Shown here one piece after another: positions 18,962 to 37,462 of a DNA stretch of 64,000 nt. The DNA comes from an uncultured virus (IMG/VR IMGVR_UViG_3300044646_001664) (lineage: Duplodnaviria; Heunggongvirae; Uroviricota; Caudoviricetes), in the IMG/VR virus record IMGVR_UViG_3300044646_001664. One strand, given 5' to 3'. Below the pieces are notes generated by a model. It was not told the DNA's origin, made no database searches, and saw nothing but the letters and a program-made list of their open reading frames with translations. A program made the translations under genes and the position numbers. Position 1 is the stretch's first letter; each line of letters begins with the position of its first letter.

Positions 18962-21900
18962 TTATGCAAGTTCAATATCAGTTAAATTATAATTAGATAT
19001 TGGTAATGTCAATGCTTGAGTAGTCCATGTAGCACCATCAGTTGATACATATATGCCTAGGTTTTCATTTACTGTTGAGGTATTTATGTCTCCTGATCCT
19101 GAAATTGCTGTCCATAGGTTGTTGCCATAGGCTACTGAAAATATATCATTTACAAAGTTTAAGGTTTTGGTAGTCCAGGTTACTCCATCGGTTGAAGTTC
19201 TTAGGGCTCCAAAATTGCCACCTGCTACCCAAATACTGTTTCCGTAGGCTATTGATCGTATAGTTCCACTTCCAAAGTTTGAAGTTTGTGTGGTCCAGGT
19301 TGTGCCATCTGTTGAGGTACGGAGTGTGCCTGAAATTCCACCTGCTATCCAGAGGTTATTTCCGTAGGCTACTGATATTATACGTGTAGTTCCAAAGTTA
19401 GAGGTGCGTGTAGTCCAGGTTATGGCATCGGTTGAGGTGCGCAATTGGCCTCCATCCCCACCTGCTATCCAAAGGCTGTTGCCGTAGGCTGCTGACCATA
19501 TAGTGGTATTTCCAAAGTTAGAGGTTTGGGTAGTCCAGGTAGTGCCGTCTGTTGAGGTACGGAGTTGTCCTGTATAGCCAGTTGCTACCCAAAGGCTGTT
19601 GCCGTAGGCTACTCTTTGTATTTGTGTATTTCCAAAGTTAGAGGTGCGTGTGGTCCAGGTTGTTCCATCCGTTGAGGTACGTAACTGGCCTGTATTTCCA
19701 CCTGCTATCCAAAGATTGTTTCCGTAGTCTACTGAGTTTATCTGTGTATTACCAAAGTTAGAGGTGCGTGTGGTCCAGGTTGTTCCGTTTGTTGATGTAC
19801 GGACTTGTCCTGAACCACCACCTGCTACCCACAGGTTATTGCCGTAGGCTACTGATGTTATAAAAGTATTGCCAAAGTTGGAGGTTTGTGTTACCCATCT
19901 ATTTGGTGTTTTTCCATCTACATATATTGAATAAGTGTTATTATAAGAATTTACTTTTTCTACCCAACCCAAAACTCCTGTTCTAGTTGAGGCATATGTA
20001 GAATTTGATGTATTAAATGTATAAAATATTCCTTGATCTGATGCTAATATATCTGTGTTTATTGATGTAATAATTGGTGATATTGATGGGGTGTAGGAAA
20101 TTCGTAGTTGTCCTGCCTCACCACCTATTGCCCATAGGTTGTTGCCGTAGGCTACTGAGTTTATAACGGTACTTCCAAAGTTAGAGGTTTGGGTAGTCCA
20201 GGTTATGGCATCTATTGAGGTACGTAACTGGCCTGCATCTCCAACTATTGCCCAAAGGTTGTTAGCGTAGGCTACTGAGTTTATAGTTGTAGCACCAAAG
20301 TTAGAGGTGCGGGTGGTCCAAGTTATTGCATCAGTTGAGGTGCGGAGATTGCCTGCCTCACCACCTGCTACCCAGAGGTTGTTGCCGTAGATTATTTTGT
20401 TTATAAGTGAAGCACCAAAGTTTGAGGTTTGGGTGGTCCACGTTATAGCGTCTGTTGAGGTGCGGAGTTGTCCTGAATATCCACCTGCTATCCAAAGGCT
20501 ATTACTATAGACTGCTGTGCGTATACCTGAAGTTCCAAAGTTTGAGGTTTGGGTGGTCCATGTTATTGTATCTGTTGAGGTACGGAGTTGTCCTGAACCA
20601 CCAACTGCTACCCAGAGGTTATTTCCGTAGGCTATTTCGTTTATAAGTGAAGCACCAAAGTTTGAGGTTCTGGTAGTCCATGTTATTGCATCTGTTGAGG
20701 TGCGTAGTTGGCCATTAGCCCCTCCTATTACCCAAAGGTTGTTGTTATGGGCTAATGCAAATATACTGTCAACAGCAGAAAAGTTAGAGGTTTGGGTAGT
20801 CCATGTTATTGCATCTGTTGAGGTGCGTAGTGTGCTAAAGATTCCACTTGCTACCCACAGGTTATTGCCGTAGGCTATGTCTCTTATAGCAAGGTTTCCA
20901 GAAATATTTGAAGTTTGAGTAGTCCATTGCAAATTTTGAATGGTATATGAAATTAAATTATTACTAGTAACAAAATTATTATCTGCTATTAATCCAAATG
21001 CTGTATTTCCAAATGCAGATATTGACTTTATATTGTTGAATAATGGTGTTACGGTTGAGGTGCGGACTTGGCCTGCACTACCGCCTGCTACCCAAAGGCT
21101 GTTGCCGTAGGCTACTGATTGTATACGTGTATTTCCAAAGTTAGAGGTTTGGGTATCCCAGGTTGTGCCATCTGTTGAGGTACGGAGTGTGCCTGTGTAG
21201 CCAACTGCTATCCATAGGCTGTTGGCGTAGGCTATTGACTCTATGCGTGTAGTTCCAAAGTTGGAGGTGCGTGTGGCCCAGGTTATGGCATCTGTTGAGG
21301 TACGAATTCGGCCATATACTCCACCTGCTACCCAAAGGTTGTTGCCATAGGCTACTGAGAATATAGTTGTTCCAAAGTTGGAGGTGCGGGTGGCCCAGGT
21401 TATGGCATCTGTTGAGGTACGTATTTGGCTTCCAGTACCACCTGCTACCCACAGGTTATTGCCGTAGGCTATTGCATATATATTTGAGGTTCCAAAGTTG
21501 GAGGTTTGGGTGGTCCAAGTTGTGCCATCGGTTGAGGTGCGGATTTGTCCTGTATAGCCGCCTGCTACCCAAAGGCTGTTGCCGTAGGCTATTGATTGTA
21601 TCTCTGTATTACCAAAGTTAGAGGTGCGGGTGGTCCAGGTTATGGCATCTGTTGAGGTGCGGAGTTGTCCTGTATTACCACCTGCTATCCATAGGCTGTT
21701 GGCGTAGGCTACTGATTGTATAAAAGAGGTTCCAAAGTTTGAGGTACGAGTGGTCCAGGTTATGGCATCTGTTGAGGTACGGAGTGTGCCTGAACTACCA
21801 CCTACTACCCACAGGTTATTGCCGTAGGCTACTGATGTTATAAAAAAGTTTCCAAAGTTAGAGGTGCGGGTGGTCCAAAAAATTCCTGCCTGATACAAAC

Positions 21901-24127
21901 TTCTATATTGATTATATTGATCTGTATTTCTATCAGAATATAAAAGAGATCCATTTATATTTGATATTGCTTTATAGCGTTCTGTTGTTGCTATGCCGCT
22001 TGATTTTACGTTGGTATCTACAGAAGCAATAGCATTTAAAATACTAATAGTAGTCCATGATATTCTATCAGTAGACACTCTTGTATTTGTTCCTGTTGAA
22101 GATGCTACTGTTGATATATTTGGATTATATAATAAGATTGAGGTACGGAGTTGGCCTGACTCTCCACCTGCTACCCAAAGGCCGTTTCCATAGGCTACTG
22201 ATGTTATACTTGAAGTTCCAAAGTTGGAGGTTTGCGTAGTCCAAGTTATTGCATCTGTTGAGGTGCGGAGTTGGCCTGTATTTCCACCTGCTATCCAAAG
22301 ATTGTTTCCGTAGTCTACTGAGTTTATCTGTGTATTACCAAAGTTAGAGGTGCGTGTGGTCCAGGTCGTACCATCCGTTGAGGTACGTAACTGGCCTGTA
22401 TCCCCACCTATTGTCCATAGGTTGTTGCCATAGGATATTGCTCTTATGGCTGTACTTCCAAAGTTTGAGGTACGGGTAGTCCAGGTTATGGCATCTGTTG
22501 AGGTACGAAGTGTTCCTGTATAGCCGCCTGCTATCCAAAGATTGTTTCCGTAGTTTAACCTTAGTATATCCGTATTACCAAAGTTTGAAGTTTGGGTAGT
22601 CCAGGTGGTGCCGTCTGTTGATGTTCGTAGTTGTCCTCTATTTCCACCTGCTACCCAGAGGCTGTTTCCATAGGCTATTGAGTGTATAAAAGAGGTTCCA
22701 AAGTTGGAGGTACGAGTGGTCCAGGTTGTGCCATCTGTTGAGGTGCGTAGTGTTCCTGCATTACCACCTGCTATCCAAAGGTTATTGCCGTAGGCTATTG
22801 AGTATATACGTGTACTTCCAAAGTTGGAGGTGCGGGTATCCCAGGTTGTGCCATCTGTTGAAATTTGTATTTGTCCAGTATCTCCACCTGCTATCCATAG
22901 GCTGTTGCCGTAGGCTACTGAGCGTATTGTTGTGCTTCCAAAGTTAGAGGTTTGTGTATTCCAACTAGATATTGCATTATTATTTTCAGCAATTTGCACA
23001 TTATTTATATTACTTGATCCAAATCCAGCATCTATTGTTGTCCATGATATGGAGTCGGTAGAAAATAAGAGTCTATTATTGTTCCCGCCGACAATATAAT
23101 TATTTAAAGTAGGATTATATGAAATATCGTTTAAAGAATCATCTGCTGAAGTGCGGATTTGTCCTTGATTTCCACCTGCTACCCAGAGGCTGTTGCCATA
23201 GGCTACTGAGTATATATCTGAAGTTCCAAAGTTAGAGGTTTGGGTGGTCCAGGTTATGGTATCTGTTGAGGTGCGCAATTGGCCATATTGCCCACCTGCT
23301 ACCCAAAGACTGTTGCCGTAGGCTACTGAGAATATACTTGTATTACCAAGGTTTGAGGTTCTGGTAGTCCAGGTTGTGCCATCTGTTGATGTGCGTAGTT
23401 GTCCTGAATTTCCACCTGCTATCCAAAGGTTATTGCCGTAGGCTATTGAGCCTATAGATGTACCACCAAAGTTGGAGGTTTGGGTAGTCCAGGTTATGGC
23501 ATCTGTTGAGGTGCGTAAGGTGCCTGTATTTCCACCTGCTATCCAAAGACTGTTGCCGTAGGCTATTGAGCGTATTGCTGAAGTTCCAAAGTTTGAGGTT
23601 TGAGTGGTCCAAGTTGTGCCATCTGTTGAGGTGCGCAATTGGCCATATTGCCCACCTGCTACCCAAAGGCTGTTGCCGTAGGCTACTGAAAATATATTTG
23701 TATTACCAAAGTTTGAGGTTTGAGTGGTCCAAGTTGTGCCATCTGTTGAGGTGCGCAATTGGCCTGTATAGCCGCCTGCTATCCATAGGCTGTTGCCGTA
23801 GGCTACTAATCGTATATCCGTATTTCCAAAGTTGGAGGTACGAGTGGTCCAGGTTATGGTATCGGTTGAGGTGCGAAGTGTGCCAGATTGCCCACCTGCT
23901 ACCCAAAGGTTATTTCCATAGGCTACTGCTCTTATCTGTGTGTTTCCAAAGTTTGAGGTTTGTGTGGTCCAGAATGTGCCATTATTTGACGGTATATTAA
24001 TATCAAAAGTTGTTAAATCTCCAGTAGATGATCTTAATGTTCCATCAGTTCCAGTAATAAAAAGTTTTTTTAAAAAGTTGAATGTTGATACAAATACAGC
24101 GCTAGCAGTAATTCCTAAGATTGGCAT
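18962..24127 (-). CDS. Giant beta-propeller repeat protein (5 x 7 blades), probable fibre-tip receptor-binding protein
   Basis: 35 copies of a ~40-aa Asp-box-like repeat TWTT(R/Q)TSNFG...YGN.LW.AGG..G.LRTSTD; start MPILGI at 24127 by TAATG overlap. Confidence 0.75.
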   Translation of the reverse strand: MPILGITASAVFVSTFNFLKKLFITGTDGTLRSSTGDLTTFDINIPSNNGTFWTTQTSNFGNTQIRAVAYGNNLWVAGGQSGTLRTSTDTITWTTRTSNFGNTDIRLVAYGNSLWIAGGYTGQLRTSTDGTTWTTQTSNFGNTNIFSVAYGNSLWVAGGQYGQLRTSTDGTTWTTQTSNFGTSAIRSIAYGNSLWIAGGNTGTLRTSTDAITWTTQTSNFGGTSIGSIAYGNNLWIAGGNSGQLRTSTDGTTWTTRTSNLGNTSIFSVAYGNSLWVAGGQYGQLRTSTDTITWTTQTSNFGTSDIYSVAYGNSLWVAGGNQGQIRTSADDSLNDISYNPTLNNYIVGGNNNRLLFSTDSISWTTIDAGFGSSNINNVQIAENNNAISSWNTQTSNFGSTTIRSVAYGNSLWIAGGDTGQIQISTDGTTWDTRTSNFGSTRIYSIAYGNNLWIAGGNAGTLRTSTDGTTWTTRTSNFGTSFIHSIAYGNSLWVAGGNRGQLRTSTDGTTWTTQTSNFGNTDILRLNYGNNLWIAGGYTGTLRTSTDAITWTTRTSNFGSTAIRAISYGNNLWTIGGDTGQLRTSTDGTTWTTRTSNFGNTQINSVDYGNNLWIAGGNTGQLRTSTDAITWTTQTSNFGTSSITSVAYGNGLWVAGGESGQLRTSILLYNPNISTVASSTGTNTRVSTDRISWTTISILNAIASVDTNVKSSGIATTERYKAISNINGSLLYSDRNTDQYNQYRSLYQAGIFWTTRTSNFGNFFITSVAYGNNLWVVGGSSGTLRTSTDAITWTTRTSNFGTSFIQSVAYANSLWIAGGNTGQLRTSTDAITWTTRTSNFGNTEIQSIAYGNSLWVAGGYTGQIRTSTDGTTWTTQTSNFGTSNIYAIAYGNNLWVAGGTGSQIRTSTDAITWATRTSNFGTTIFSVAYGNNLWVAGGVYGRIRTSTDAITWATRTSNFGTTRIESIAYANSLWIAVGYTGTLRTSTDGTTWDTQTSNFGNTRIQSVAYGNSLWVAGGSAGQVRTSTVTPLFNNIKSISAFGNTAFGLIADNNFVTSNNLISYTIQNLQWTTQTSNISGNLAIRDIAYGNNLWVASGIFSTLRTSTDAITWTTQTSNFSAVDSIFALAHNNNLWVIGGANGQLRTSTDAITWTTRTSNFGASLINEIAYGNNLWVAVGGSGQLRTSTDTITWTTQTSNFGTSGIRTAVYSNSLWIAGGYSGQLRTSTDAITWTTQTSNFGASLINKIIYGNNLWVAGGEAGNLRTSTDAITWTTRTSNFGATTINSVAYANNLWAIVGDAGQLRTSIDAITWTTQTSNFGSTVINSVAYGNNLWAIGGEAGQLRISYTPSISPIITSINTDILASDQGIFYTFNTSNSTYASTRTGVLGWVEKVNSYNNTYSIYVDGKTPNRWVTQTSNFGNTFITSVAYGNNLWVAGGGSGQVRTSTNGTTWTTRTSNFGNTQINSVDYGNNLWIAGGNTGQLRTSTDGTTWTTRTSNFGNTQIQRVAYGNSLWVATGYTGQLRTSTDGTTWTTQTSNFGNTTIWSAAYGNSLWIAGGDGGQLRTSTDAITWTTRTSNFGTTRIISVAYGNNLWIAGGISGTLRTSTDGTTWTTQTSNFGSGTIRSIAYGNSIWVAGGNFGALRTSTDGVTWTTKTLNFVNDIFSVAYGNNLWTAISGSGDINTSTVNENLGIYVSTDGATWTTQALTLPISNYNLTDIELA

Positions 24128-26379
24128 TATGCGCTTAAATCCCCTACAGCCACCCAAGTATTTGCTGCTCTTTTAACAATTGTGGCGACAGACCATTGTC
24201 CTCTTAGTTTTAAACCAGGACTTCCATTTACTGTTGTAGTTGCTGGAGTTACCGCTGCAATTGTTATTTGTCCTGCTCCAGTTTGTAAAATATTTATTTG
24301 TGATCCTATTGCAAAATTTGCAGTAGCATCTGTTGGTATATTTAGTGTACCCGCAGTTGCTCCATTACTTAACTCAAGCCATTTATCTTTATCTGCTAGA
24401 ACTACTGTGTATGCATTTGTTGTAAATGTAGGTGTTGAAATAGTTAAAGTAGAAGAAGCAAACTCAACTGCTTGTGACACCGAATTAAGAGTGCCCCCAA
24501 CAAGAATTTTGTCATTAGTAGAATCCCAAGCAATTCTGCCATCTGTTGTAGAAGATGTAGTAGATAGAGTAAGGAGTGGTGTATCAATTGTTGGACTTGT
24601 TAAAGTTTTATTTGTAAGGGTTTCAGATACATCTTTAAGAGCAGTTCCATTCATAGAGTATGACTTACCAGAAGCAAGATTTATGTGTTCCGATGAAGTC
24701 CAAGAATCTGTAGAGTCAACCCAGTTAAAGGTTTTATCGGTTGTGCCTTTAAGTGTAATACCTCCGCCATCGGCAGTTATGTCTGTTGGAGTTTCTACAT
24801 CTCCAAGAATAATATTTTTATCTTCAACAACTAGGTTAGTTGAGTTAATATTTGTAGTTGTACCGTTTACGGTAAAGTTTCCAGATACCGTCAAAGAAGG
24901 AACTGTAAATTCTCCAGATGAAGATACATTAGCAAGGATTGTTCCGCTTGAGTTTTGCCATTCTTGCAGGTTAGCGGTTTGTGATGCTATGCCTCTAATA
25001 ACTTGTCCAATATTTGTTGTAGCAGTTGTGGTAACTTCCATTTGTGCGCCGTAGTTAGTAGTACCACCAGTACGCATTTTTCCAGTTGATGTTACAAAAG
25101 ATACACCTGTAATAAAATCTGAAACAAATGCGCCATCTGATTGAATTCTTGCCAATAGTGTACCAGCACTATCCTGCCATTGTTGAAGGTTGGCGGTTTG
25201 GGAGGTTGCACCACGAACAACTATCGGAGTAATTGCTGCCGTACCAGCAACAAAACTTCCAACGGCAGACAAAGTAAATGTTCCACCTGTACCTGCTACA
25301 TCTGTAAATCCTGAACCAAGAACCGTAAAGGTTGTTGATGTAACTGCTGTGACTGTCCAAGTTCCATTGTAAGTGCCACCACTTACTGATGCCACTGTAA
25401 CTCGCTGACCTGCTTGCACAAGTGATGTGCCACCATAGGTAAAGACTGCAACTGTCGCAGATGTATATGCAGCCGATGTGATTGCCGTAGTAGTTGAACC
25501 ATTGATGCTTGTGGTAGTCCCTGCGTATATTTGTCCAGCAGAATTAATTCCTGAAAGAACAGTTCCAGCACTACCCCTCCATTGTTGTAGGTCTGAAGTT
25601 TGAGTTGAAATACCTATTACTTGTAAAGATGGATAACTTCCTGCTGTTGATGTGACAGCAAAATAGGCAGAATTATTTCCTGATTGAAATACTAGTTGGC
25701 TTCCTCCGCCACCTACATATCCCATTGAACCTGAAATACGTAAATTACCACTTGCCTGGATTGATGCCAACGTTGTACCAGCATTATTCTGCCATTGTTG
25801 AAGGTCGTTTGATTGTGACGTTGCGCCTCTCACAACTATTCCAGTAGTAGTATTATTTATAGGAATTACTGATAATTGTGTTCCTGTTATTAAGGTTCCA
25901 AGATTTAGTGCGCCAGTATTTCTTAGGCTTGCCCTTACCGTTCCATCAAAATTGTGCCATTCTTGCAGGTTAGCGGTTTGAGATTCGGTGCCCTTTACAA
26001 TTAAACCAATAGTTTCAGCATTAGCAGTAGTAATCTGTTGCACTCCACCAGTAAAAGTATTGGCGGTAGCAAGATAAGGAACACCAGTAATTGCTGAACC
26101 TGCTGGAATTGTTACTGTGCCAGTAAAAGTGGGGGAAGCAAGTGGGGCTTTAGCATCTATCTGAGTTTGAATTGCTGAAGTTACACCATCTACATAATTT
26201 AATTCTGTAGAAGTTGCTGTAAGATCAACGTTCTCGTTAATTTTTGGGGTAGTTAAAGTTTTATTTGTAAGAGTTTGTGTATCCGATGTGGTAATAACTT
26301 GATTACCATTGACCGTAGCAGAGTTTCCTTCTACGATCAAACCATTCTTGACCCTAAAATCTTTATTTGTTGTAGTCAC
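24127..26379 (-). CDS. Tail fibre/appendage protein
   Basis: N-terminal [17 protein letters not shown] repeats, five Q(T/S)..LQ.W repeats, C-terminal ...WVAVGDLSA domain. Confidence 0.75.
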   Translation of the reverse strand: MTTTNKDFRVKNGLIVEGNSATVNGNQVITTSDTQTLTNKTLTTPKINENVDLTATSTELNYVDGVTSAIQTQIDAKAPLASPTFTGTVTIPAGSAITGVPYLATANTFTGGVQQITTANAETIGLIVKGTESQTANLQEWHNFDGTVRASLRNTGALNLGTLITGTQLSVIPINNTTTGIVVRGATSQSNDLQQWQNNAGTTLASIQASGNLRISGSMGYVGGGGSQLVFQSGNNSAYFAVTSTAGSYPSLQVIGISTQTSDLQQWRGSAGTVLSGINSAGQIYAGTTTSINGSTTTAITSAAYTSATVAVFTYGGTSLVQAGQRVTVASVSGGTYNGTWTVTAVTSTTFTVLGSGFTDVAGTGGTFTLSAVGSFVAGTAAITPIVVRGATSQTANLQQWQDSAGTLLARIQSDGAFVSDFITGVSFVTSTGKMRTGGTTNYGAQMEVTTTATTNIGQVIRGIASQTANLQEWQNSSGTILANVSSSGEFTVPSLTVSGNFTVNGTTTNINSTNLVVEDKNIILGDVETPTDITADGGGITLKGTTDKTFNWVDSTDSWTSSEHINLASGKSYSMNGTALKDVSETLTNKTLTSPTIDTPLLTLSTTSSTTDGRIAWDSTNDKILVGGTLNSVSQAVEFASSTLTISTPTFTTNAYTVVLADKDKWLELSNGATAGTLNIPTDATANFAIGSQINILQTGAGQITIAAVTPATTTVNGSPGLKLRGQWSVATIVKRAANTWVAVGDLSA

Positions 26380-26407
26380 TGAAGTTCCCTATCCCCTCAG
26401 ATACATA

Positions 26408-28789
26408 TTAGGCTTCTATAAGCGTCTTATGCACCTTTACTGTTGTCTCGTCTGATGCCGTTACAAGTAGTCTAACATTTCCGCCTGAGTAATCTGCATT
26501 AGTTGTTCCTAAAGATGCTGCTGCATTGATTACATCTGCGTATTCTGTAAGAGCAACGTTGTTGCCTCCGTCTACGTTAACAAGGATTTCTATGGTTTGA
26601 ATTTCTGTACCCTTTTTCATTTGTACTAAATATTTAGCACTTGAGTATGTGGTTGCTGACCAAGAGTCAACTACGGTTGCAGTTCCACTTGTAAGTGCTT
26701 GTGTAGCAGTTCCAATTAATGCATCTGTCAGTGTAAGCGATGTTGCAGTTGCTGCACCAATGTTTGGAGTTGTAAGTGTTGGAGAGGTGCCAAATACTAG
26801 AGCGCCAGACCCTGTTTCGTCAGAGATTACTGATGCTAGTTCTGTTGAAGTGGTTGCTGCAAAAACGTCCAATTTGTTGTTTGTAAGAGCAACAGTACCT
26901 GTAGCATCTGGAAGAGTAATTGTTCTGTCTGCAGTTGGATCAGTTACTGTAATAGTTGTTTCATGGTCGTTTGCTGTAGCACCTTCAAGAACGATACTTC
27001 CGTCTGAAAGGGTAAGTCCTGAAATTGTTGGTGATGTTAGAGTTTTGTTTGTTAAAGTGTCCGTTGAAGAGGTAGTGACAACATTAACACCTTCAACAGC
27101 AATAACACCTGCTGAAACTCTTGAAATTGTTGTGTCTGTAGCATGGCCTAACTCAACAGTTCCTACACCTAAAGCGGTGGAAGTTGAAGCAACTAATCCA
27201 CTAATCGGTAAGCCAGTTGCATTTGTTAAAGTTCCTGATGCTGGAGTTCCAAGTGCTGGAGTAGTTAGTGTTGGCGATGTGAGAGTTTTATTTGTAAGGG
27301 TTTGTGTATCTGTTAATGTTACTACAGTTGAATCAATATCAAGAGTGTTTCCAGTCTTGTCTAATCCTGTACCCGCAACAATTTGTCCAAGACCAGTAAA
27401 CTGAGTAAAGGTAAGTGCTGTAGTTCCAACTGTAATTGCACCATCGTTAGTTAATACATAACCTTGATCAGCGTTTACAGTTCCTTCTTCTACGAATACC
27501 GCAAAATTTGAAGTAAGTTCAGCACCTTCATCACAATCTTGTGCACGATCTGGATTACCAAATGGTCGAACTATATAAATACCGTTTTCTGAAGCAGTTG
27601 ATTGATTCTTAACAAGAATACGCTCATTAACAACAAGAGTTACTCCGTCAATAACATCTCCATTGTTAAGATCACTGAAAAGGTTAACGTTTGCAGTTGT
27701 TGCTGCACGTACTGATGGTTTCCAGTCAATACCTACAACTGCTGTATCAACATAACCTTTTGTTGCTGCATCTGATGAATCAGTTGGTGTACCAAGACCT
27801 GTAATCTTGTAAGTTGCCATACTGACGTTGCCAGTTGGTGCTCCAACAGCGCTTAGTGCAAACTCTGAAGGGTCTACAGAAATTGCGCCTGTTGAATCAT
27901 CATAGTCAAGACCATTTCCTACAACAGTTCCAATTGCATCTTGTGCTCTTTCGTCTGTGAAGTATTTGTTTGTTGAACCTTCTGCAATATCGTCAGATCC
28001 AAGAGTACGTGAACCACCAAGAGATGTTGATGTACCGTTAATAGTAATTGCTGAGTTTGATAGTTTATCGTTTGCAATTGATCCTGCAAGCATTGTGTTT
28101 GTTACAGAACCTGTATCTCCAGTTGTTACAACAGTTCCAGTTACGTCTGGAAGAGTAATTGTACGGTCTGCTGTAGGGTTTGTTACTGTAAGAGTTGTCT
28201 CGTTAGCATCTGCTGATGAACCTTCAAAAACAATGCTTGAATCTGAAAGTGCAAGTCCTGAAACCACTGGGCTTGTAAGAGTCTTATTTGTAAGTGTTTC
28301 AGTTCCTGCAAGAGTTGCAAAGTCTTGATCTGTTAGTGCTGTATTAAACTCTGCAATAGTTCCTGTAATTGTGTTTGTAGTTAGTGAAACCGATTTGTTT
28401 GTAAGTGTATCAGTTGTGTCTTTAAGAACTACCGTTCCAGTTGCATTTGGAAGTGTAATTGTTCTATCTTCAGTTGGATCGGTTACTTGAAGGGTAGTTT
28501 CAAAGTCATTTGCAGTTGCACCTTCAAATGAAACGCTTGCTTGAAATACTCCAACTGGTTGTGTTTCTTTCCAGGCAATTCCATTTGTTGCTTGATCGTC
28601 TGCTGTAAGCACATAGTTATTTGTTCCAACTGCTAGACGAGTTACTGCATCTGCACCAGATGCAACTAGTAAATCACCTTTTGCGTCTACTAATGCTTCT
28701 GTTAATATATCGTGGTTGTTTACAGTTGCAGTTGATCCTTCAACTACTAGTCCCGCTTTTACTCTAAAATCTTTTGTTACGGTTGCCAT
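26408..28789 (-). CDS. Tail fibre/appendage protein
   Basis: N-terminal [15 protein letters not shown] repeats, three EG..A...ETT....P..DRTITLP repeats, DAATKGYVD motif. Confidence 0.75.
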
Positions 28790-28804
28790 CTTATATCTCC
28801 TTGG

Positions 28805-29251
28805 TTAGGCCTTTAATCCCATACGCATGTAGCGTAGGGTTATAGGTGTAATTCCCCCTACTGGAACAACAGTTAGTGAAACTGTGTCTCCAGCCCTTGA
28901 AACAGAGATGGTGCCAATATTCCCATCATTGTCAATTGTTGCATACTGAGTAAAGTTAACATCTGTACCGTCAATCAGAATGCTAAGTTCTGTAGAAAAG
29001 TACTTGTTAGCCCCACCTACCACATATTTGAGTGAGATCATATATTTCATTGATCTAAACTCGCTTGCTAAAAAGTTATCAAAAACCGTTGGGTTTTCAA
29101 TTCCATTAATTGTTGACTCGTTATTACCATCTGATCCAAGATCGGTAGACCTAGCAGAAGTACTATCAATTAAGTCTATATAGTTTTGTTCCGTTGGTCT
29201 ATCACCTGTTTGAAACAGGGCTTTTACATTGGTGGTTGATATCTTTGCCAT
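28805..29251 (-). CDS. Fibre-associated structural protein
   Basis: N-terminal FQTGDRPT....DLIDS; C-terminal domain homologous to that of 26408..28789. Confidence 0.55.
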   Translation of the reverse strand: MAKISTTNVKALFQTGDRPTEQNYIDLIDSTSARSTDLGSDGNNESTINGIENPTVFDNFLASEFRSMKYMISLKYVVGGANKYFSTELSILIDGTDVNFTQYATIDNDGNIGTISVSRAGDTVSLTVVPVGGITPITLRYMRMGLKA

Positions 29252-29271
29252 AGGTCTATTATAGCATTATG

Positions 29272-29532
29272 TTAAAGAATATAGTTAGAAAAACCAATCA
29301 TCTGAACACCAATTACTGGTGGATTGTTTGGGCTATAGCCTTGAATGCCAATATTGGTTATGCTTAGTCTAAATGGAAGAATTTCTGTTAATATAACTAC
29401 CTTCGAATAATTGACTAATGCAACAGGATTTGATGCTGGCTTAATGTCTGAAATTGCTATTGTTGGAGAAATTGTTGCTGCTGAAACTAATACCGCTAAA
29501 GCAATACCTTGGGAAATCGAGGTTGTTGCCAT
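29272..29532 (-). CDS. Small structural/hypothetical protein
   Basis: 86-aa ORF coupled to its neighbour. Confidence 0.4.
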   Translation of the reverse strand: MATTSISQGIALAVLVSAATISPTIAISDIKPASNPVALVNYSKVVILTEILPFRLSITNIGIQGYSPNNPPVIGVQMIGFSNYIL

Positions 29533-29978
29533 TATGAATCCTGATCTGTTACTTCACCAAGCATAATCATTTCGCCTTGACATACTGTCCAAATACGATC
29601 ATTGTCTGTTAGTTGAATATCAAAAACATCTCCAGTTCTTAACTGTTTTGATTGTACTGCAGATACCGTTACTGTAAATTCTCCTGGATCATCAAACTCT
29701 GTTGCATAAGGATAGACTGTAAATAATAAATCATCTCCGACATCGTCTGAATACCTTCTAAAATCTCCTTTTATGTCCCAACCAGTGATATCTCCACTTT
29801 CATCATTTGTATAATCTAAAGGATTTCCTAAATCATCTTCTACGTAAATTCTAAAAGATATAGTATCTCCTATTACAGCAGTCCAGTTAATTAATGGTGG
29901 CTTATTGCCAAGGTTATATACTGAAGGTGTTGTTACATTTGTAATTGAACTTTCATCAGGGTTTCTATATGTAGCCAT
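29532..29978 (-). CDS. Ig-like virion protein (baseplate-upper-like), paralog of 37121..37462 and 37595..37996
   Basis: GDT, FDIQ, TV..G......EVT motifs shared with the two paralogs. Confidence 0.45.
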   Translation of the reverse strand: MATYRNPDESSITNVTTPSVYNLGNKPPLINWTAVIGDTISFRIYVEDDLGNPLDYTNDESGDITGWDIKGDFRRYSDDVGDDLLFTVYPYATEFDDPGEFTVTVSAVQSKQLRTGDVFDIQLTDNDRIWTVCQGEMIMLGEVTDQDS

Positions 29979-29993
29979 TATTTAATTATACCA

Positions 29994-30515: not shown

Positions 30516-30657
30516 AATCTTATTATTATACCACTTCCTAAAGCAATATTTTTAATAAATGTGCGGGTATATTGATAAAGTTGACTTTAATCCCTAAATC
30601 ATGTTATAATTAATATACTACCGAAAGGTAGTTTTTGTTTCTAAGGAGGTAACACTA

Positions 30658-31209
30658 ATGAGAAACATTGAAAAGAAGGTTTGGTTGGGGTTACTATCTA
30701 TTGTTGGTTTGGTTGCGCCTTTTAGCAATTCTGCTAATGCTTTAGATAATAATTTATTGACTAAACCCTCCGTTGAAGCCGTTCCAGCCCCTACAGGGGC
30801 TTTTCTGGTTTCTAAGGAGAGTATATTAAAAAAATATGAAAATGCTCATAAATTAACTGATAGCCAGTTAGTTGACCTATTGAAGGCTATAGGGTTTAAA
30901 GGTGATAAATTAAGAACAGCATGTGCAATTGCAAAGGCTGAATCTAATGGAAGACCTTTTGCTTTTAATGGCAACTCAGAAACTGGAGATAGTTCTTATG
31001 GAGTATTTCAAATAAATATGATAGGAAAACTGGGTCCTGATCGTAGAGAAAAATTCGATCTTGACTCTAACGTTGAATTATTTAACCCAGTTACTAATTC
31101 ACAAATAACATTTCACATGACTAAGGGTGGTAAAGATTGGTCAGCATGGAGTTCTGTGAATGGACCACGGTATCAAGAATGGTACAGCAAGTATCCTTGT
31201 AAAGTCTAA
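30658..31209 (+). CDS. Lysozyme-like lytic transglycosylase (SLT-type) with N-terminal signal/TM segment
   Basis: AIAKAES, SYGVFQIN, LFNP..N, DWSAW motifs. Confidence 0.8.
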   Translation: MRNIEKKVWLGLLSIVGLVAPFSNSANALDNNLLTKPSVEAVPAPTGAFLVSKESILKKYENAHKLTDSQLVDLLKAIGFKGDKLRTACAIAKAESNGRPFAFNGNSETGDSSYGVFQINMIGKLGPDRREKFDLDSNVELFNPVTNSQITFHMTKGGKDWSAWSSVNGPRYQEWYSKYPCKV

Positions 31210-31219
31210 TAATTAAAAT

Positions 31220-31256
31220 ACCCTCCTTGCTTTTGGCTTGGAGGGTTTTTTATTTT
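31220..31256 (+). terminator. Intrinsic terminator
   Basis: ACCCTCC...GGAGGGT followed by a T-run. Confidence 0.65.
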
Positions 31257-31292
31257 AAACATTAAACATTTTATTGTAAATATAGGTTTAGT

Positions 31293-31883
31293 CTATTCGT
31301 GTTTTTTAATACTTGCTCTAATTTCTTTTTCAAATATATTATATTTAGTAGGAATCCAAAAAGACGGAGTTGTGTATCTTACGCCTTTAGTTATTTCACG
31401 CACACCATGTATGTACATAGTATTTGATGGGAAAAAAACTAATGTTCCAGCCTTGGGCTTAAACTCTAGTTTGTGATCTGGAAAATATATTTCTCCACCT
31501 TCATAGTCATCATTTAAATATATAACAGCCCCATAATCAACTATAAATGCTTCATTTGGATGCCCCTCTGGATCTTCTCCATCTGCATGTAATGGTTGAT
31601 ACTCTCCTACATCCCATCTTCTTATTCCAGCAGAATTAGTTTCAAGTGGTCTGCCAAAATGAAACTCAATCTCTTTTTGTACCCTATTAATTGCATTTAA
31701 TAAAATTTTATGAATCTCTGGTTTTTCTTTATGAAGTTTTTCTGTAACTTTGTCTGGTATGCCAGCCATTGAATTAGATCCCCAAGAAATTGAATCATCA
31801 ATTGAAGATAAAATCAAGTCTAAGTCTTCTTTAGAAATAAAGTTTTCTTTAATAACTATATTTTTTGTTGATCCTATTTTCAT
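31293..31883 (-). CDS. 2OG-Fe(II) oxygenase, prolyl-4-hydroxylase-like
   Basis: HAD...YLNDDYEGGE.YF...HGV.....G.RY. Confidence 0.9.
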   Translation of the reverse strand: MKIGSTKNIVIKENFISKEDLDLILSSIDDSISWGSNSMAGIPDKVTEKLHKEKPEIHKILLNAINRVQKEIEFHFGRPLETNSAGIRRWDVGEYQPLHADGEDPEGHPNEAFIVDYGAVIYLNDDYEGGEIYFPDHKLEFKPKAGTLVFFPSNTMYIHGVREITKGVRYTTPSFWIPTKYNIFEKEIRASIKKHE

Positions 31884-31894
31884 TATATTTCTCC

Positions 31895-32053
31895 TTAGTT
31901 AGGTAATTTATATTGTTCTGCTATTTCTTTTGCTTTGTCAAAATTTGATACATCAATCATTGAATATAAAACATAGCACAACCATTGGTAAGATGATTTC
32001 TCACAATACCCTTTTGATTGCATTGTTTTAGCAATGTCTTCTATAATTTCCAT
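31895..32053 (-). CDS. Small hypothetical protein (52 aa, not in ORF track)
   Basis: MEIIEDIAK...KLPN, TAATG-coupled to the upstream oxygenase. Confidence 0.45.
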   Translation of the reverse strand: MEIIEDIAKTMQSKGYCEKSSYQWLCYVLYSMIDVSNFDKAKEIAEQYKLPN

Positions 32054-32574
32054 TATTTATATTCCATAAACAAATTAATGGCATATCTAGTTCCTGAAAT
32101 AACACTATGTGCTACGTGTGCATATGGGTAGTTAGAAGGAAATAAAACCATTGAATTTTTTATTGGTTTTTCTTTAATTCCAAAATTAACAAACTCTATT
32201 TCTCCGCCCTCATAACTATCGTTTAAATAAATAACACAACTTGTTACCCTATTTGATACATGTTTAGATCCATCATCATAATGCATAACATATTTTTGAT
32301 TAGGCTCATACTTTAATGCCTCTATTGTAAAGTATGTTAATTCTGGTAAATAATACATATTCCTATATTGTCCTAAAAATTTATCTATTCCGCTTTGTAC
32401 AATATTAAAAATTTTTTCATACTTTTCTTTATCGTTAAAATATATAACAGAGTTAGACCTATCTTCTACTTTAACATTTTCTGGCTTAGACCATTCATAC
32501 TTATTTATTTCTTCTATTAGCATTTCTGGATTTTCTAAAACATCATAATAAAATTCTATACCATTTTTAGACAT
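32053..32574 (-). CDS. 2OG-Fe(II) oxygenase, prolyl-4-hydroxylase-like
   Basis: HYD...YLNDSYEGGE...FPSNYPYAH.......GTRY; likely start MSKNG. Confidence 0.9.
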   Translation of the reverse strand: MSKNGIEFYYDVLENPEMLIEEINKYEWSKPENVKVEDRSNSVIYFNDKEKYEKIFNIVQSGIDKFLGQYRNMYYLPELTYFTIEALKYEPNQKYVMHYDDGSKHVSNRVTSCVIYLNDSYEGGEIEFVNFGIKEKPIKNSMVLFPSNYPYAHVAHSVISGTRYAINLFMEYK

Positions 32575-33283
32575 TGCTATGCCTTTCGTCTTTTGTATAA
32601 AGTTTAATTTTTTTAACTTCATGTTCTCCAATTTTATTACCATATTGATCGGTGGCACTTCTATAAAAATCAGACCATTTTGGAATTTTATTGTTTTCTA
32701 AAATAACATTTCCATAATTTGTTAAATTTTTGTGATATTCATTTATATCGTATGGATTGTTATTTAAAGTCATTGTAGATTCATTTAAGTTAAAAAGAGA
32801 TATTGGCATTACTGCCATAAAAGGTTCGTTTGCCTTAAAGGTTATTGAAACATTTGGCTTTGTAATTTTCCAAGAAACTGGTATTGGAGAATTCCAAAAA
32901 CTTGTACTAATAATATTAGTTAGTGGCGATGCTCCGTCAATAACTAGGTTTGGTGGTCCAAAAAACAAAAGACTAACATTTGGATCTGTTTTAAAAAACC
33001 ACCCAATATTAAAAATTAAGGTTGCAGTTCCTCTATTTGTATCAACAAACTCTTGTCCCTCTAAAACCTTTATATGATTTCCTTCTTCTGTGTCGTTTCC
33101 ATCCCATATTACGGTTATATCTTTTGGAAATGAGAATCCCCAACCCATTTGATTGGTTAGGGATAATGGAAAACAGCGATATGCATGACCATCAAATGTT
33201 TTATCCATCCACTCTCTTTTTACTGGAAGTTGCTCTATCTTTGCTGCTCCCTGAAAAATTTCGTATGCTTCAATATTATACAT
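32567..33283 (-). CDS. DUF6065-like protein
   Basis: REWMD.T...HAYRCFPL...N..GW motif. Confidence 0.65.
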   Translation of the reverse strand: MYNIEAYEIFQGAAKIEQLPVKREWMDKTFDGHAYRCFPLSLTNQMGWGFSFPKDITVIWDGNDTEEGNHIKVLEGQEFVDTNRGTATLIFNIGWFFKTDPNVSLLFFGPPNLVIDGASPLTNIISTSFWNSPIPVSWKITKPNVSITFKANEPFMAVMPISLFNLNESTMTLNNNPYDINEYHKNLTNYGNVILENNKIPKWSDFYRSATDQYGNKIGEHEVKKIKLYTKDERHSNV

Positions 33284-33949
33284 TTATGCTGTTGTTCTAT
33301 TTTTTAAAATTTCATTTGCTCCGTGTGCTCGATCATTATAATCAAACATTGTCACTGCTGAATATTTTAATCCTTCTTCTACTGGAAGCGCTGCATGTGA
33401 ATAAATAAAGGTAGATGGAAACAAAACAATATCTCCTTCTTCTGGTTGATAAGTATAATTTAGGTATGGGAAAAATAATCCACCACCAACAAAGTTATCA
33501 TTTAAATACATGACTGTTGAAACTGTACAAATATAACTAAAACCATGATCTGAGTGAACTCCAAAATGGTGCCCTGGTCCATACTTTACAAAATTAACTG
33601 CTTCTTGATATCTCATTTGAATGTTATACATAGAACAATAATGGCTTAAGCATGATTGCAACCTAACATCGATATCTTCATAAATATTTTTTAAATCTGA
33701 ATTGGCTACAGATGGATTATTGGTTATATCATATTTTCTAACTTTAAAGTCTACACAATCTCGGTAATCTTTCATTGTTTGATAGTCGCCTACTTGTGCT
33801 TCAGACCACTTAAAAAATGTATCTTTATCTTTATTATTATCGATTACACTTTCTAATCTTTCTACCAAGTTTAATGATTTATTTAAACTATTTTTGTAAA
33901 TAAAAACACCATTTGCTGGATTTAAAATTTCAATATTTGTTGCTTCCAT
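33284..33949 (-). CDS. 2OG-Fe(II) oxygenase, prolyl-4-hydroxylase-like
   Basis: HSD...YLND...GG.L.F...FPS.FIYSH...PV..G.KY. Confidence 0.9.
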   Translation of the reverse strand: MEATNIEILNPANGVFIYKNSLNKSLNLVERLESVIDNNKDKDTFFKWSEAQVGDYQTMKDYRDCVDFKVRKYDITNNPSVANSDLKNIYEDIDVRLQSCLSHYCSMYNIQMRYQEAVNFVKYGPGHHFGVHSDHGFSYICTVSTVMYLNDNFVGGGLFFPYLNYTYQPEEGDIVLFPSTFIYSHAALPVEEGLKYSAVTMFDYNDRAHGANEILKNRTTA

Positions 33950-34021
33950 AGCAGACCCCTTTTCGTTATTTTAATTATACACCATATAGAGTTTTATACG
34001 CTACTATGGTAAAATATATAG

Positions 34022-34618
34022 ATGATCAATAAAAAATCTATAATCCCGTCTGGATATTATGGCAACTCTAAAGAAAATATAGTAATTATTAATAATTTTA
34101 TATCTCATGATGATATAAAAAAAATAAAAATATTTTGCTCAGAATTAAATACCTTTATGTCTATTCCTGGAGACAATTGGGATAATCGTGTTTGCAATAA
34201 CTCAATCCTTAAAGAAATTGCTCCTGATATTGAACAAATATTATCTACTTATCAAAAAAAACATAAAAAAATTATAGAAGATTTTTTTAGTATTGAATTA
34301 AAAGATAATGTGCCAAGCGTTGTTATATGGAGACAGGGTGATCTTCAACCACCACATGCAGATAAAGAAAATCTTGATGGAAGCCCAAACCTATATCCTG
34401 AAAACGACATTGCTTCCTTGTTCTATCTTAATAATGAGTATATTGGCGGAGAAATTTATTTTCCAACACAAGGATTACAATTTAAATTAAATGCTGGAGA
34501 TGCGGTATTTTTTCCAGGAGATGTTAACTATCAACATGGTGTTACTGAGGTAACTGAAGGAAAAAGATTTACCTGTCCAGCATTTTGGAATGTTATAAAA
34601 AATAATAAAAATATTTAA
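34022..34618 (+). CDS. 2OG-Fe(II) oxygenase, prolyl-4-hydroxylase-like
   Basis: HAD...YLN..Y.GGEIYF...HGV.EV..G.RF. Confidence 0.9.
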   Translation: MINKKSIIPSGYYGNSKENIVIINNFISHDDIKKIKIFCSELNTFMSIPGDNWDNRVCNNSILKEIAPDIEQILSTYQKKHKKIIEDFFSIELKDNVPSVVIWRQGDLQPPHADKENLDGSPNLYPENDIASLFYLNNEYIGGEIYFPTQGLQFKLNAGDAVFFPGDVNYQHGVTEVTEGKRFTCPAFWNVIKNNKNI

Positions 34619-34630
34619 TATTTTATTAAA

Positions 34631-34864
34631 TTATTCTGGTAGTGTAAAAGTATCTGTTTCTGAATTATAAATAACTCCTGCTTGAACAATTCCACCTTCT
34701 ATAGCAGTTTGACCAGTAACATCTTTAATTATAGGATTACTCATCATCATTGCATAAAATTTTTCACTTGCTGTAATTACCTGAACAACCTCATTGTCAA
34801 TTATTAAAGCAATATAAAACAAGTTATCTGGCAATGCTGGAACTTCACTATCTTCTATAGCCAT
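34631..34864 (-). CDS. Small fibre-associated hypothetical protein
   Basis: A.IIDNEVV...G..Y....DTF..P pattern, common next to phage fibre genes. Confidence 0.4.
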   Translation of the reverse strand: MAIEDSEVPALPDNLFYIALIIDNEVVQVITASEKFYAMMMSNPIIKDVTGQTAIEGGIVQAGVIYNSETDTFTLPE

Positions 34865-34913
34865 TTTTTCTCTTTTCTGTTATATTAATTATAGCACTTA
34901 TGACGCAAAGGCT

Positions 34914-35147
34914 TTACCATTTTCCAATCGGACATTTTGAAGCCTCTAGTCTTGTTTTTATTTCCATAAAACAGCCACATTTTTTACATGTTTTTGTTAA
35001 TTGTATTAATTCTGGGCAAGATATGCATATGTCTAACCTTTTATTTTTAATTTCAATATCAACCGACTTTGTATTTGGATTTAACAAGTCAAAAGGCGTA
35101 GTTCCATATTTTTCTTTATATTGTTGCCATTTATTTTTTTCTGACAT
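34914..35147 (-). CDS. Cys-rich DUF6171-like protein
   Basis: RL.IC..C.......C..CGCFM..K.......CP..KW. Confidence 0.7.
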   Translation of the reverse strand: MSEKNKWQQYKEKYGTTPFDLLNPNTKSVDIEIKNKRLDICISCPELIQLTKTCKKCGCFMEIKTRLEASKCPIGKW

Positions 35148-35165
35148 TTTTCCCCCTTTATTTTA

Positions 35166-35765
35166 TTACAAACAGAATAGGAACGTTGTACTTGTACAGA
35201 CACATTGATAATCAGATGAACCGCTAGTGTATACTCCGTCAAAGTAACAATTTCCAAATACATTCAAGCATCCGCCTCCAGCAATAGCACATGGTTGTGG
35301 AGAAGGTGGTGGGAATGGTGGTGGGAATGGTGGTGGGAATGGTGGTGGGAATGGAGGTGGGAATGGAGGTGGGAATGGAGGTGGTGCTGGGAATGGCGGT
35401 GGGAATGGTGGTGGGAATGAAGGTCCAAATGATGGTGGGAATGAAGGTGCTGGTGCTGCTGGTGTAACTGAACTAGTAGGTGATGAAAAATCAGAGTCTA
35501 AAATAGTATTATTTAACTTTACTGTAAATGTATATGCAGTTCCATTTGATAATCCAGTTACTACTATTGGTGAACTAGATCCAGTTTGTGAAATTGAACT
35601 AGGTGATGAAACAACTGTATAAGTTAAAGAAGAATCTGGTTTACCTAAATATGTTGGTACTGTAAATGTTACAGACGCTTGACCGTTACCAGCGGTTGCA
35701 GTTCCAATTGTTGGTGTTCCTGGTGTACGACCAGCAGAAGATAATACGGGTCCTAGTCTTGACAT
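35166..35765 (-). CDS. FN3-domain protein with polyproline (FPPP)n stalk and Cys-rich C-terminus
   Basis: P..PTIGTAT.G..ASV.FT and GLSNGTAYTFTV FN3 motifs; start MSRLGP at 35765 by TAATG overlap. Confidence 0.75.
   Translation of the reverse strand: MSRLGPVLSSAGRTPGTPTIGTATAGNGQASVTFTVPTYLGKPDSSLTYTVVSSPSSISQTGSSSPIVVTGLSNGTAYTFTVKLNNTILDSDFSSPTSSVTPAAPAPSFPPSFGPSFPPPFPPPFPAPPPFPPPFPPPFPPPFPPPFPPPFPPPSPQPCAIAGGGCLNVFGNCYFDGVYTSGSSDYQCVCTSTTFLFCL
35305..35450. repeat. 12-bp coding tandem repeat GG(T/A)GGTGGGAAT encoding FPPP units
   Basis: About a dozen perfect or degenerate units read directly. Confidence 0.9.
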
Positions 35766-36493
35766 TATGCAACTAAGTCTCCAAGAACAACCCAAGAGTC
35801 AGTAGCACGTTTAATACATACGGCAGATGACCATTGTGCTCTTAATTTTAATCCTGGAGTTCCGTCTACAGTTGTAGTTCCTGGAGTAGTTGCTGCAATA
35901 GTTACCTGTCCCGTGCCTGTTTGTAAAATTGTAATTTGTGCACCTGTTGCAAATGCTTGGTTGGCGTTTGTTGGAATTGACAAGGTAACTGCAGAAGCAC
36001 TTGACACCTCAACCATTTTTCCATTATCGGCAAGAACAAGTTCATAAGCAACTGTTTGTGGGTTAATTGAAAGATTTATAACTGGAGCAGTTAAAGTTTT
36101 ATTGGTTAGTGTTGCGCTATTAGTAAGTGTAACATCTGGTGTTGTCCAGGCTAGTCCTGATGCCGTTGCAGAGTTGGCTGTTAAAACGGTTCCATTACTT
36201 CCAACAGATAAAATAGATAATGTGTCATTTGCTGAAGCAGAAAGTAGGTCACCTTTTGCTGCAAAATCTGTTTTTAATAGTGCAGTTGAAAGATCAATTG
36301 CAGTTATTTGAGTTTGTAAACTATTAAGTGTATAAGCAATAGATGGACTTACAAGGTTTGCTGCATTAGAGTTTGCCGAATTATAATTTTCGTCTCCATA
36401 GTGATATAAACGAAATGCTGCCTGTATGTCGGCAGGATCTGATAATCCTGGAATTTTAGTTGGTATTAACGTACCTATTGATTCTGCTGCCAT
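35765..36493 (-). CDS. Short fibre/appendage protein
   Basis: AKGDLL..., TLTNKTLT; C-terminal domain homologous to that of 24127..26379. Confidence 0.7.
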   Translation of the reverse strand: MAAESIGTLIPTKIPGLSDPADIQAAFRLYHYGDENYNSANSNAANLVSPSIAYTLNSLQTQITAIDLSTALLKTDFAAKGDLLSASANDTLSILSVGSNGTVLTANSATASGLAWTTPDVTLTNSATLTNKTLTAPVINLSINPQTVAYELVLADNGKMVEVSSASAVTLSIPTNANQAFATGAQITILQTGTGQVTIAATTPGTTTVDGTPGLKLRAQWSSAVCIKRATDSWVVLGDLVA

Positions 36494-37121: not shown

Positions 37122-37462
37122 TATACTGCACCTGTTACGTCATCTACTACTGATACTTCTCCTGTAAGAAGTGTATAAATTTGTGTTCCGTCTGTAATCT
37201 GAACATCATAAACATAAGTAGCAGCAGCAAGAGTTCTACCAACTGCTGGTGTTATTGTACATGTAACAATATCTGTTGTTGCATTCACTACTGCAGAGGC
37301 AACGGTCTGTACTCCAGCAGAACCTCTTACGGTTGAAATTGTAAAAGCAGCGCTATAACCTGCTAAATCAAAAGTCCCGCCATTTGCTGTCTTTGGACGA
37401 ATTACAAATTGAGATGTGTCACCACGGTAATACAAAAAGTTATAAAATCCTGGAAATGCCAT
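37121..37462 (-). CDS. Ig-like virion protein (baseplate-upper-like)
   Basis: RGDT, DL.GY, YVYDVQ, TLLTG.V.V..DVT. Confidence 0.5.
   Translation of the reverse strand: MAFPGFYNFLYYRGDTSQFVIRPKTANGGTFDLAGYSAAFTISTVRGSAGVQTVASAVVNATTDIVTCTITPAVGRTLAAATYVYDVQITDGTQIYTLLTGEVSVVDDVTGAV

Follow-up and report, generated by a model that had tools for sequence, protein, structure and literature searches.

It is established that phage fibre proteins are joined via dedicated end domains in T4 and in branched tailspike complexes. In phages of the T2/S16 type, the gp38 adhesin caps the tip of the gp37 fibre and is mounted through its N-terminal part. In T4, the long tail fibre is joined coaxially to gp9's C-terminal domain (PMC3004832), and in TSP4 of phage CBA120 docking is done by the domains XD2 and XD3, according to the TSP4 paper (PMC8825819). 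The subject of this report is a fibre gene cluster at positions 18962–36493 of a DNA stretch of 64,000 nucleotides (termed the window, which refers to the whole stretch) from an uncultured virus of the Caudoviricetes, IMG/VR record IMGVR_UViG_3300044646_001664. Two C-terminal domains, termed X and Y, are each followed in this cluster by a gene whose product starts with a matching peptide, here called a plug: a KDF-type module after X and an MPILG-type peptide after Y. Judged from its sequence, this uncultured phage seems to assemble the fibres with which it finds its host from individual proteins coupled end to end via two kinds of joint, and the architecture of such fibres may be partly readable from gene order.

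All six joint genes are on the minus strand, in two modules. The order in module B, given by amino acid (aa) chain length, is 173 aa, 148 aa (phrog_1084), 86 aa, 148 aa (X end), 793 aa, 750 aa and 1721 aa. The 793 aa protein has a KDF-type start and an X end, the 750 aa protein a KDF-type start and a Y end, and the 1721 aa protein displays propeller repeats. The order in module A is 133 aa and 113 aa (both phrog_1084), 196 aa, 242 aa (Y end) and 199 aa; the last protein shows an FN3-like domain, a PPPF tract and a Cys-rich tail. Within the window, profile searches count exactly two X domains, two Y domains, two KDF-type starts and two overlapped plug starts. A preliminary description of this DNA had proposed that X and Y are sockets that bind the N-terminal plug of the next protein, and the coordinates it gave proved correct, with all six genes on the minus strand.

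The first gene with an X domain, at positions 28805..29251 (minus strand), encodes the 148 aa adaptor (“mini-gp9”), which has a short helical N-terminus followed by X at residues 36–148 (DNA 28808..29146). The second, at 26408..28789 (minus strand), encodes the 793 aa fibre. This has a KDF-type plug at residues 1–30 (28700..28789; A5 plug profile, E-value = 3.7e-19), a repeat shaft, and a C-terminal X at residues ~700–793 (DNA 26411..26692; A2 X profile, E = 1.1e-55), and it matches tail-fibre PHROGs. BLAST finds scarcely any likeness between the two X copies (E-values of 0.33 and 4.5 in the alignments concerned). Profiles built from relatives of each (alignment A1 with 14 rows and A2 with 13 rows) match with 97% probability and E = 1.2e-10 over 75 columns. 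Thus X is a real domain despite the weak BLAST signal, and its presence at both ends, as first described, is borne out by the profile comparison.

An AlphaFold2 (AF2) model of the 148 aa protein has a mean predicted local distance difference test score (pLDDT) of 73, with values of 80–89 over most of X. The modelled X is an eight-stranded jelly roll that is superposable on residues ~167–288 of T4 gp9. With 1qex_A residues 169–284, VIA-align gives Z = 14.2 and a root mean square deviation (rmsd) of 2.0 Å over 108 residues at 18% identity, and Foldseek gives E = 2.3e-5 against gp9. The second structural match is the gp9-like chain of the Klebsiella phage KP1 baseplate (Z = 12.1). Because it superposes on the gp9 domain where the long tail fibre attaches, X is, by its modelled fold, the T4 gp9 socket domain. 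The 148 aa protein does not have the three-domain architecture of gp9, as two short helices lead directly to X with no middle domain; on the model it is a minimal gp9 that lacks this domain. phrog_967 (“baseplate wedge tail fiber protein connector”) matches the 148 aa protein with E = 8.1e-6, at residues 45–118 only. Pfam has no model for X. A PDB sequence search with X alignment A2 yielded no match and one with A1 yielded a weak N-terminal match only; the N-terminus of the 148 aa protein weakly resembles that of the AfpX13 tail fibre (E = 0.015).

The third protein of the series, the 750 aa fibre (24127..26379, minus strand, GTG start), also begins with a KDF-type plug (26290..26379; A5 profile, E = 4.9e-20). 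The first 30 residues of the 793 aa and 750 aa proteins have 18 residues in common (E = 5e-8), and little else in the two proteins is alike. The module is ~30 residues long and starts M-A-T-x-x-K-D-F-R-V-K-x-G-L-x-V-E-G. At the X junctions in the window, spacers of 15 and 28 bases with Shine-Dalgarno-like sequences separate the genes.

A search of IMG/VR with X found 80 loci with 120 X matches, all C-terminal. A KDF-type start lies no more than 120 bases after X in every one of the 118 matches that have at least 90 bases downstream. The search in the other direction, with plug alignment A5, found 79 loci with 135 KDF-start genes, the module being N-terminal in all; 128 of these genes follow an X-ended open reading frame, four are at a locus edge and three are unresolved. 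Usually, a 145 aa X protein is followed by a fibre of 372–862 aa with both plug and X, and this by a third plug-bearing protein, which spans from ~86 aa to more than 988 aa. The preliminary description had suggested that the adjacency of X to KDF-type starts be checked across phage genomes, and it holds strongly in both directions.

Y was compared in the same way. The Y ends of the 750 aa fibre (residues 656–750, DNA 24130..24414; A3 Y profile, E = 5.3e-43) and of the 242 aa protein, a short fibre or adaptor encoded at 35765..36493 (minus strand; Y at residues 148–242, DNA 35768..36052), are identical at 59 of 95 residues (62%, E = 2e-33), and a common domain at these two ends had been correctly recognized from the outset. 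The C-terminus of phrog_8780 (“minor tail protein”) matches the 242 aa protein with E = 1.9e-15. In the AF2 model of this protein, pLDDT is 89–96 over residues 151–242, and Y is modelled as a beta-sandwich knob of ~95 residues. Apart from its top structural match, which is considered below, Y matches a KP1 baseplate chain (Z = 8.7), CBA120 TSP4 residues 81–184 (Z = 8.0), CpaA (Z = 7.3), the middle domain of T4 gp9 (residues 68–165, Z = 7.1), T4 gp10 residues 56–150 (Z = 6.9) and StcE (Z = 5.5), and scores below StcE fall to 3.6. Y has the XD1 fold of the gp10-like XD domains, with Z values that are moderate. Among the structural matches listed, the aligned ranges fall on XD1 and not on XD2 or XD3, and the set of matches is the same as the list for XD1 in the TSP4 paper (PMC8825819).

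There is no Pfam model for Y, and a PDB sequence search with Y gave nothing significant (best E = 0.034, to an antibody fragment). Y is nevertheless a very large family. When the Y profile was run against 1.84 billion representative sequences, 32,638 proteins matched at E ≤ 0.001 and 16,618 at E ≤ 1e-10; among the matches listed, Y is at the exact C-terminus in most of the single-copy proteins of this representative library. A search of predicted structures of viral proteins gave 322 proteins that match Y at E ≤ 0.001, and the best 50 of these are mostly unnamed proteins of uncultured phages, together with Gordonia phage minor tail proteins. Y is not confined to fibre ends, because tandem arrays of Y-like stretches are found in P0009 (22 stretches, 3206 aa) and P0010 (16 stretches, 2401 aa), and P0078, a protein with a signal peptide, has two internal Y-like copies. 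A fusion of Y with plug cargo behind it in one chain was sought in 10 of the representative-library sequences with internal Y and none was found; the internal copies in these 10 are tandem Y repeats or, once, belong to a cellular protein.

Both Y junctions in the window read GCATAATG, in which the ATG shares one base with the TAA; the TAATG coupling of the preliminary description is thereby confirmed in the junction DNA. After the 750 aa fibre comes the gene for the 1721 aa multi-propeller tip protein (18962..24127, minus strand), whose ATG at 24127 overlaps the preceding TAA by one base. Its plug, MPILGITAS, is at 24101..24127, and the protein matches DUF6242 (E = 9.6e-19) and Kelch_6 (E = 4.4e-16). 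After the 242 aa protein comes the gene for the 199 aa tip protein (35166..35765, minus strand), with a divergent plug, MSRLGPVLSS (DNA 35736..35765), and an ATG that again overlaps the TAA. The window has 14 junctions with such a stop/start overlap, and thus the overlap alone is not distinctive here.

The Y search found 80 loci with 83 matches, all C-terminal; Y reaches the exact end of the protein in 79 of the 83 and stops no more than three residues from it in the other four. The Y-ended proteins have many unrelated N-termini and lengths from 162 to more than 1000 aa. Clustering of the Y matches at 85% identity gave 32 clusters, and in 22 of them the next gene overlaps the Y stop by one or four bases. 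The products of 14 of these 22 coupled genes start with MP, and eight match MP[ILV][ILVP]G. A reverse scan of the whole collection was done with a degenerate DNA pattern encoding MPI[L/F]GI.A, and it hit at least 120 loci. An upstream Y-ended open reading frame is present in 110 of the 120 loci listed (105 of these with the one-base overlap), and in one further locus among them Y is cut by the locus end. Three loci (L269, L276 and L334) have MPILGIMAS starts after open reading frames that end in ...RYLKSAV(A) or ...HYKKSEVA and not in Y; this shared C-terminal sequence may represent a further, third kind of socket that takes the MP plug. The remaining loci of the 120 listed are apparent chance matches or locus edges. 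Thus Y lies next to an MP-type start in both directions of search, as had been anticipated, but the pattern M..LG first put forward for this plug holds too little information. The true consensus is MPILGI-hydrophobic-AS, of which MSRLGPVLSS is a divergent member; homologous pairs, L159 for example, connect it with the consensus.

The MP plug is nearly invariant. In 95 unique junctions, the plug codons have an entropy of 1.2–1.8 bits at their third positions while the residues are fixed. The conservation stops ~10 codons into the plug gene, and the stop codon is TAA in 93 of the 95 junctions. Selection thus acts on the peptide and not on the DNA, as third-codon positions vary while residues do not. 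A fusion of the two proteins by read-through or frameshift at TAATG was considered and rejected: the frame past the TAA closes within four codons, and the ATG is conserved.

The nature of the plug is matched to the domain that precedes it. None of 118 X junctions leads to an MP-type start, and none of 81 Y junctions leads to a KDF-type start. What follows the plug varies. The nonamer is common to at least five unrelated cargo families, and MP-plug cargo includes FN3 arrays, Gly_rich_2, a DUF5122 propeller, Hint-like and PASTA domains, and a ~180 aa family; this last tip family has no match in PHROGs or PDB. One Y cluster is found with tips of 177 aa and 450 aa, and another with tips of 173 aa and 328–366 aa. 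Upstream shafts and downstream cargo both vary, and the Y-plus-plug junction alone is constant. In relatives, homologous plug-FN3 proteins are found downstream of Y. (Two such plug-FN3 tips, at L159:3285-4232 and L163:3282-4190, give weak Hint/intein-splicing matches, with E-values of 0.0035 and 0.0032.)

One example shows the same type of cargo with either plug. Locus L033 has a 493 aa propeller protein with a KDF-type plug after an X-ended fibre. The repeats of the window 1721 aa protein are 71%–79% identical to the L033 propeller in the alignments listed, yet this protein has an MPILG plug and follows a Y-ended fibre. A screen for more propeller-like pairs with a plug switch left L033 and the window as the sole case. 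Tip exchange, which the preliminary description had postulated as swappable tips, is thus seen directly when loci are compared, both in the Y clusters with differing tips and in the propeller pair. Its cargo types also hold: DUF6242 and Kelch_6 indicate a multi-propeller, and the other tip is of FN3-polyproline type, the fn3 match of the 199 aa protein being sub-threshold (E = 0.0022, 18.6 bits against a Pfam cut-off of 25).

The Y joint is also carried by cultured phages. Three phages of Gordonia terrae have a minor tail protein that ends in Y and, a short distance behind it, a gene of 196–199 aa: RiverRaider (gp40/gp41), Wizard (gp35/gp36) and MelBins (gp39/gp40). Its start overlaps the Y stop by four bases in RiverRaider and by one base (TGATG) in MelBins, and lies three bases past the stop in Wizard. 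The downstream gene is annotated as a minor tail protein in Wizard and MelBins and as a hypothetical protein in RiverRaider; RiverRaider gp41 matches phrog_7114 (“minor tail protein”). The downstream products have hydrophobic starts, MVLP in Wizard and MelBins and VIPGV (from a GTG) in RiverRaider. Because these phages are cultured, the question of the Y joint is testable at the bench.

The fibre cluster probably encodes two orthogonal, non-covalent, end-to-end joints with exchangeable tips. The analysis shows the homologies, the folds, the adjacency statistics, the conservation of the plug at the amino acid level and the exchange of cargo across the junction; we infer that plug and socket bind physically, that the partners are trimers, and that they are mounted serially rather than in parallel. 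In the first joint, the KDF-type module of ~30 residues would dock onto X. This joint would use the gp9-type socket twice, once on the small adaptor and once more where the fibre ends distally, and such reuse would permit serial extension. In the second, the hydrophobic nonamer MPILGI-hydrophobic-AS would bind the Y knob, possibly as an added strand, and would mount exchangeable adhesin-like tips; translational coupling would favour matched amounts of both proteins. The window could then give two assemblies: from the virion to the 148 aa adaptor, the 793 aa fibre, the 750 aa fibre and the 1721 aa propeller tip; and from the virion to the 242 aa protein and the 199 aa FN3-polyproline tip.

Several observations weigh against this proposal, and most of them would be expected if the fibres were mounted in parallel. 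In that case, X and Y would be distal receptor-binding or structural knobs, the N-termini would dock on a common tail site or on the 148 aa adaptor, and adjacency would reflect cassettes that are inherited and transferred together. The X fold is also that of the distal C-terminal domain of Acinetobacter tailspikes (Z = 10.0–10.5) and is distal in Klebsiella phage Kp9 gp42 (Z = 9.1); it is therefore suggestive, but function is not settled by the fold alone. The top structural match of Y is the knob that ends the capsid spike of Pseudomonas phage Pa223 at its C-terminus (Z = 12.0, rmsd 1.8 Å, 86 residues), a free distal end according to the preprint (10.1101/2025.06.11.659172). The XD1 fold occurs in glycan-binding modules of CpaA and StcE, and the TSP4 paper describes XD1 function as not fully understood (PMC8825819). 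With matches of the XD1 and free-knob types, Y belongs to the phage fibre/baseplate toolkit, but its fold alone does not say “socket”. Y is also found repeated in tandem, as many as 22 times within a single protein, and 10 of the 32 Y clusters have no coupled gene, with an MP-type start one base past the stop in one of these ten. The X/KDF loci all come from one broad clade with conserved synteny, and thus their counts are not independent events. Plug profile A5 has no match in the T4 record. Among cultured phages, tblastn with X matched S-SM2 only. In this cyanophage the gene after the X-ended, fibre-like SSM2_107 (A2 profile, E = 1.2e-22) is unrelated; the KDF-type fibre SSM2_032 (E = 2.8e-5 in a whole-record search) is ~60 kb away, and the gene before it encodes a glycine-rich protein that X profiles do not match (best E = 0.065). 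Socket and plug thus co-occur in S-SM2 without being adjacent, and therefore gene order would encode the chain in the clade of the window and not universally; the preliminary claim that gene order encodes a fibre chain stands, through the adjacency counts, to that extent. Parallel mounting does not readily account for the one-to-one correspondence of sockets and plugs in number and order, the total lack of cross-type junctions, the propeller cargo whose plug type switches along with the upstream socket type, or a Y-plus-plug junction that stays constant while shafts and cargo vary. It is regarded as unlikely, but it is the main rival.

The gene after Y could also encode an assembly chaperone or a transient folding partner of the fibre tip instead of a permanent distal segment. 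Tail-fibre assembly proteins are likewise encoded close behind fibre genes; the gene after Y lies immediately downstream with translational coupling, and many of the proteins after Y are small (175–200 aa); but others reach 1721 aa and have adhesin-type domains, the ~180 aa family has no chaperone-family match in PHROGs or PDB, and the Wizard and MelBins homologues, as well as RiverRaider gp41 through phrog_7114, are minor tail proteins by annotation only. A chaperone role for these genes is judged improbable. That cargo is exchanged at the junction would also suit a recombination linker acting at the DNA level, in which a conserved boundary sequence would promote exchange of tip cassettes and the peptide would have no function. 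This is rejected on the codon evidence given above, as third-codon positions in the plug are nearly free while amino acids are fixed, and conservation ends ~10 codons into the gene; it is given hardly any weight. The two-joint, end-to-end proposal is thus retained, and the socket-and-plug chain first described is supported in part: adjacency, gp9 homology and tip swaps speak for it, while Y is not a known docking fold.

A broader possibility, that X/KDF and Y/MPILG form a general, sequence-readable assembly code for the fibres of uncultured phages in which any Y knob would take any cargo with the nonamer and any X socket any fibre with the KDF module, is put forward tentatively and is rather doubtful. 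If that code were real, gene order would reveal both the architecture of the fibres and the set of receptor-binding tips on a virion, and transfer of a plug of 9–30 residues could rewire them. Tail fibres decide which bacteria can be infected, and in uncultured phages the majority of fibre genes lack annotation. If the proposed joints are correct, sequence alone would tell the partners and the sequence of assembly of fibre proteins, and a function would be given to Y, a very large domain family without a Pfam model, and to the small tip-protein families after it. The plug would also be a natural cut point for the exchange of receptor-binding tips, and this cut point could be used in laboratory phages to test host-range determinants.

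The rest of the window identifies it as phage DNA. The minus strand carries a portal gene (6475..8088), a head protease and a major capsid protein that is ~44% identical to its counterparts in large Streptomyces siphophages; the window also encodes a ribonucleotide reductase and many glycosyltransferases. A megablast search of the fibre region against cultured phages gave no match, and contigs near-identical or related to the window are frequent among IMG/VR viral contigs. Near the portal is a 1215 aa open reading frame (8453..12100) with no PHROG or Pfam match; a 125 aa open reading frame (8063..8440) intervenes. A single tRNA-Asp (GTC) gene is at 47823..47900 on the plus strand.

Some features adjoin the fibre modules. 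Directly after the 1721 aa gene and on the same strand, positions 15029..18914 carry a sulfotransferase (PF13469, E = 7.5e-13) and a glycosyltransferase-like run. The sole plus-strand gene near module B (30658..31209) encodes 183 aa that begin with a signal-peptide-like stretch and include a lysozyme-like domain, SLT_3 (E = 2.5e-15). Three paralogues of phrog_1084, a family of unknown function, lie upstream of the fibre modules, at 37595..37996 (E = 1.8e-7), 37121..37462 (E = 1e-17) and 29532..29978 (E = 1.8e-10), and after two of the three comes a small gene whose start overlaps. In the 199 aa tip protein, the FN3-like domain is followed by PPPF/PFPP repeats over ~55 residues and by a Cys-rich tail, six of the last 35 residues being Cys. 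Between the fibre modules and adjoining the gene for this protein, positions 31293..34618 contain four 2OG-Fe(II) oxygenase genes and a DUF6065 gene. Because oxygenase genes of this type adjoin it, the PPPF tract is a candidate substrate for proline hydroxylation. In L096, L114 and L122–L124, open reading frames of 75–95 aa with polyproline runs of the FFPPYFPP type are found ~200 bases past uncoupled Y genes.

The locus can now be set beside the described systems. A non-exhaustive literature search found no account of a C-terminal gp9-type fibre socket or of a Y/MPILG junction. The closest parallel to the first joint is that of T4 gp9 and gp34: X superposes on the gp9 socket domain, and a fibre gene with a conserved N-terminus follows. 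Unlike gp9, the adaptor here has only 148 aa and lacks the gp9 middle domain and long coiled coil, and its socket domain recurs at the distal end of a fibre. The KDF module has no significant sequence match to the gp34 N-terminus. The likeness of the two in alignment is by eye only, and the module was dropped as a detectable homologue of that N-terminus, as a forced hmmsearch gave 1.4 bits, away from the motif. In the T4 long tail fibre (gp34-gp35-gp36-gp37), the proteins are likewise joined end to end and encoded in the order of assembly, whereas the joints proposed here use X and Y and the same type of joint is repeated within a chain. Homologues of the T4 hinge proteins were not noticed here, and no search was aimed at them.

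With regard to the second joint, small beta-sandwiches of the gp9/gp10 fold mount other trimers in CBA120 TSP1-4, G7C gp66/gp63.1 and T4 gp10; there, docking is by XD2/XD3 near the N-terminus of the carrier and leads to branches, according to the TSP4 paper (PMC8825819). Y corresponds to the XD1 range and lies at the extreme C-terminus and not at an N-terminal branch point; it would give a linear joint. As in T2/S16 gp37-gp38, a gene with adhesin-type domains is directly downstream of the fibre gene, but the attachment element here is a conserved nonamer. The capsid spike gp52 of Pa223, the best fold match of Y, has a trimeric C-terminal knob as well; that knob ends freely at the distal side, and the accessible part of its preprint describes no partner. 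What sets the present locus apart from these systems is a gp9-type socket at the C-terminus of a fibre, a second joint between an XD1-type knob and a nonamer, and the breadth of this second joint in uncultured phages.

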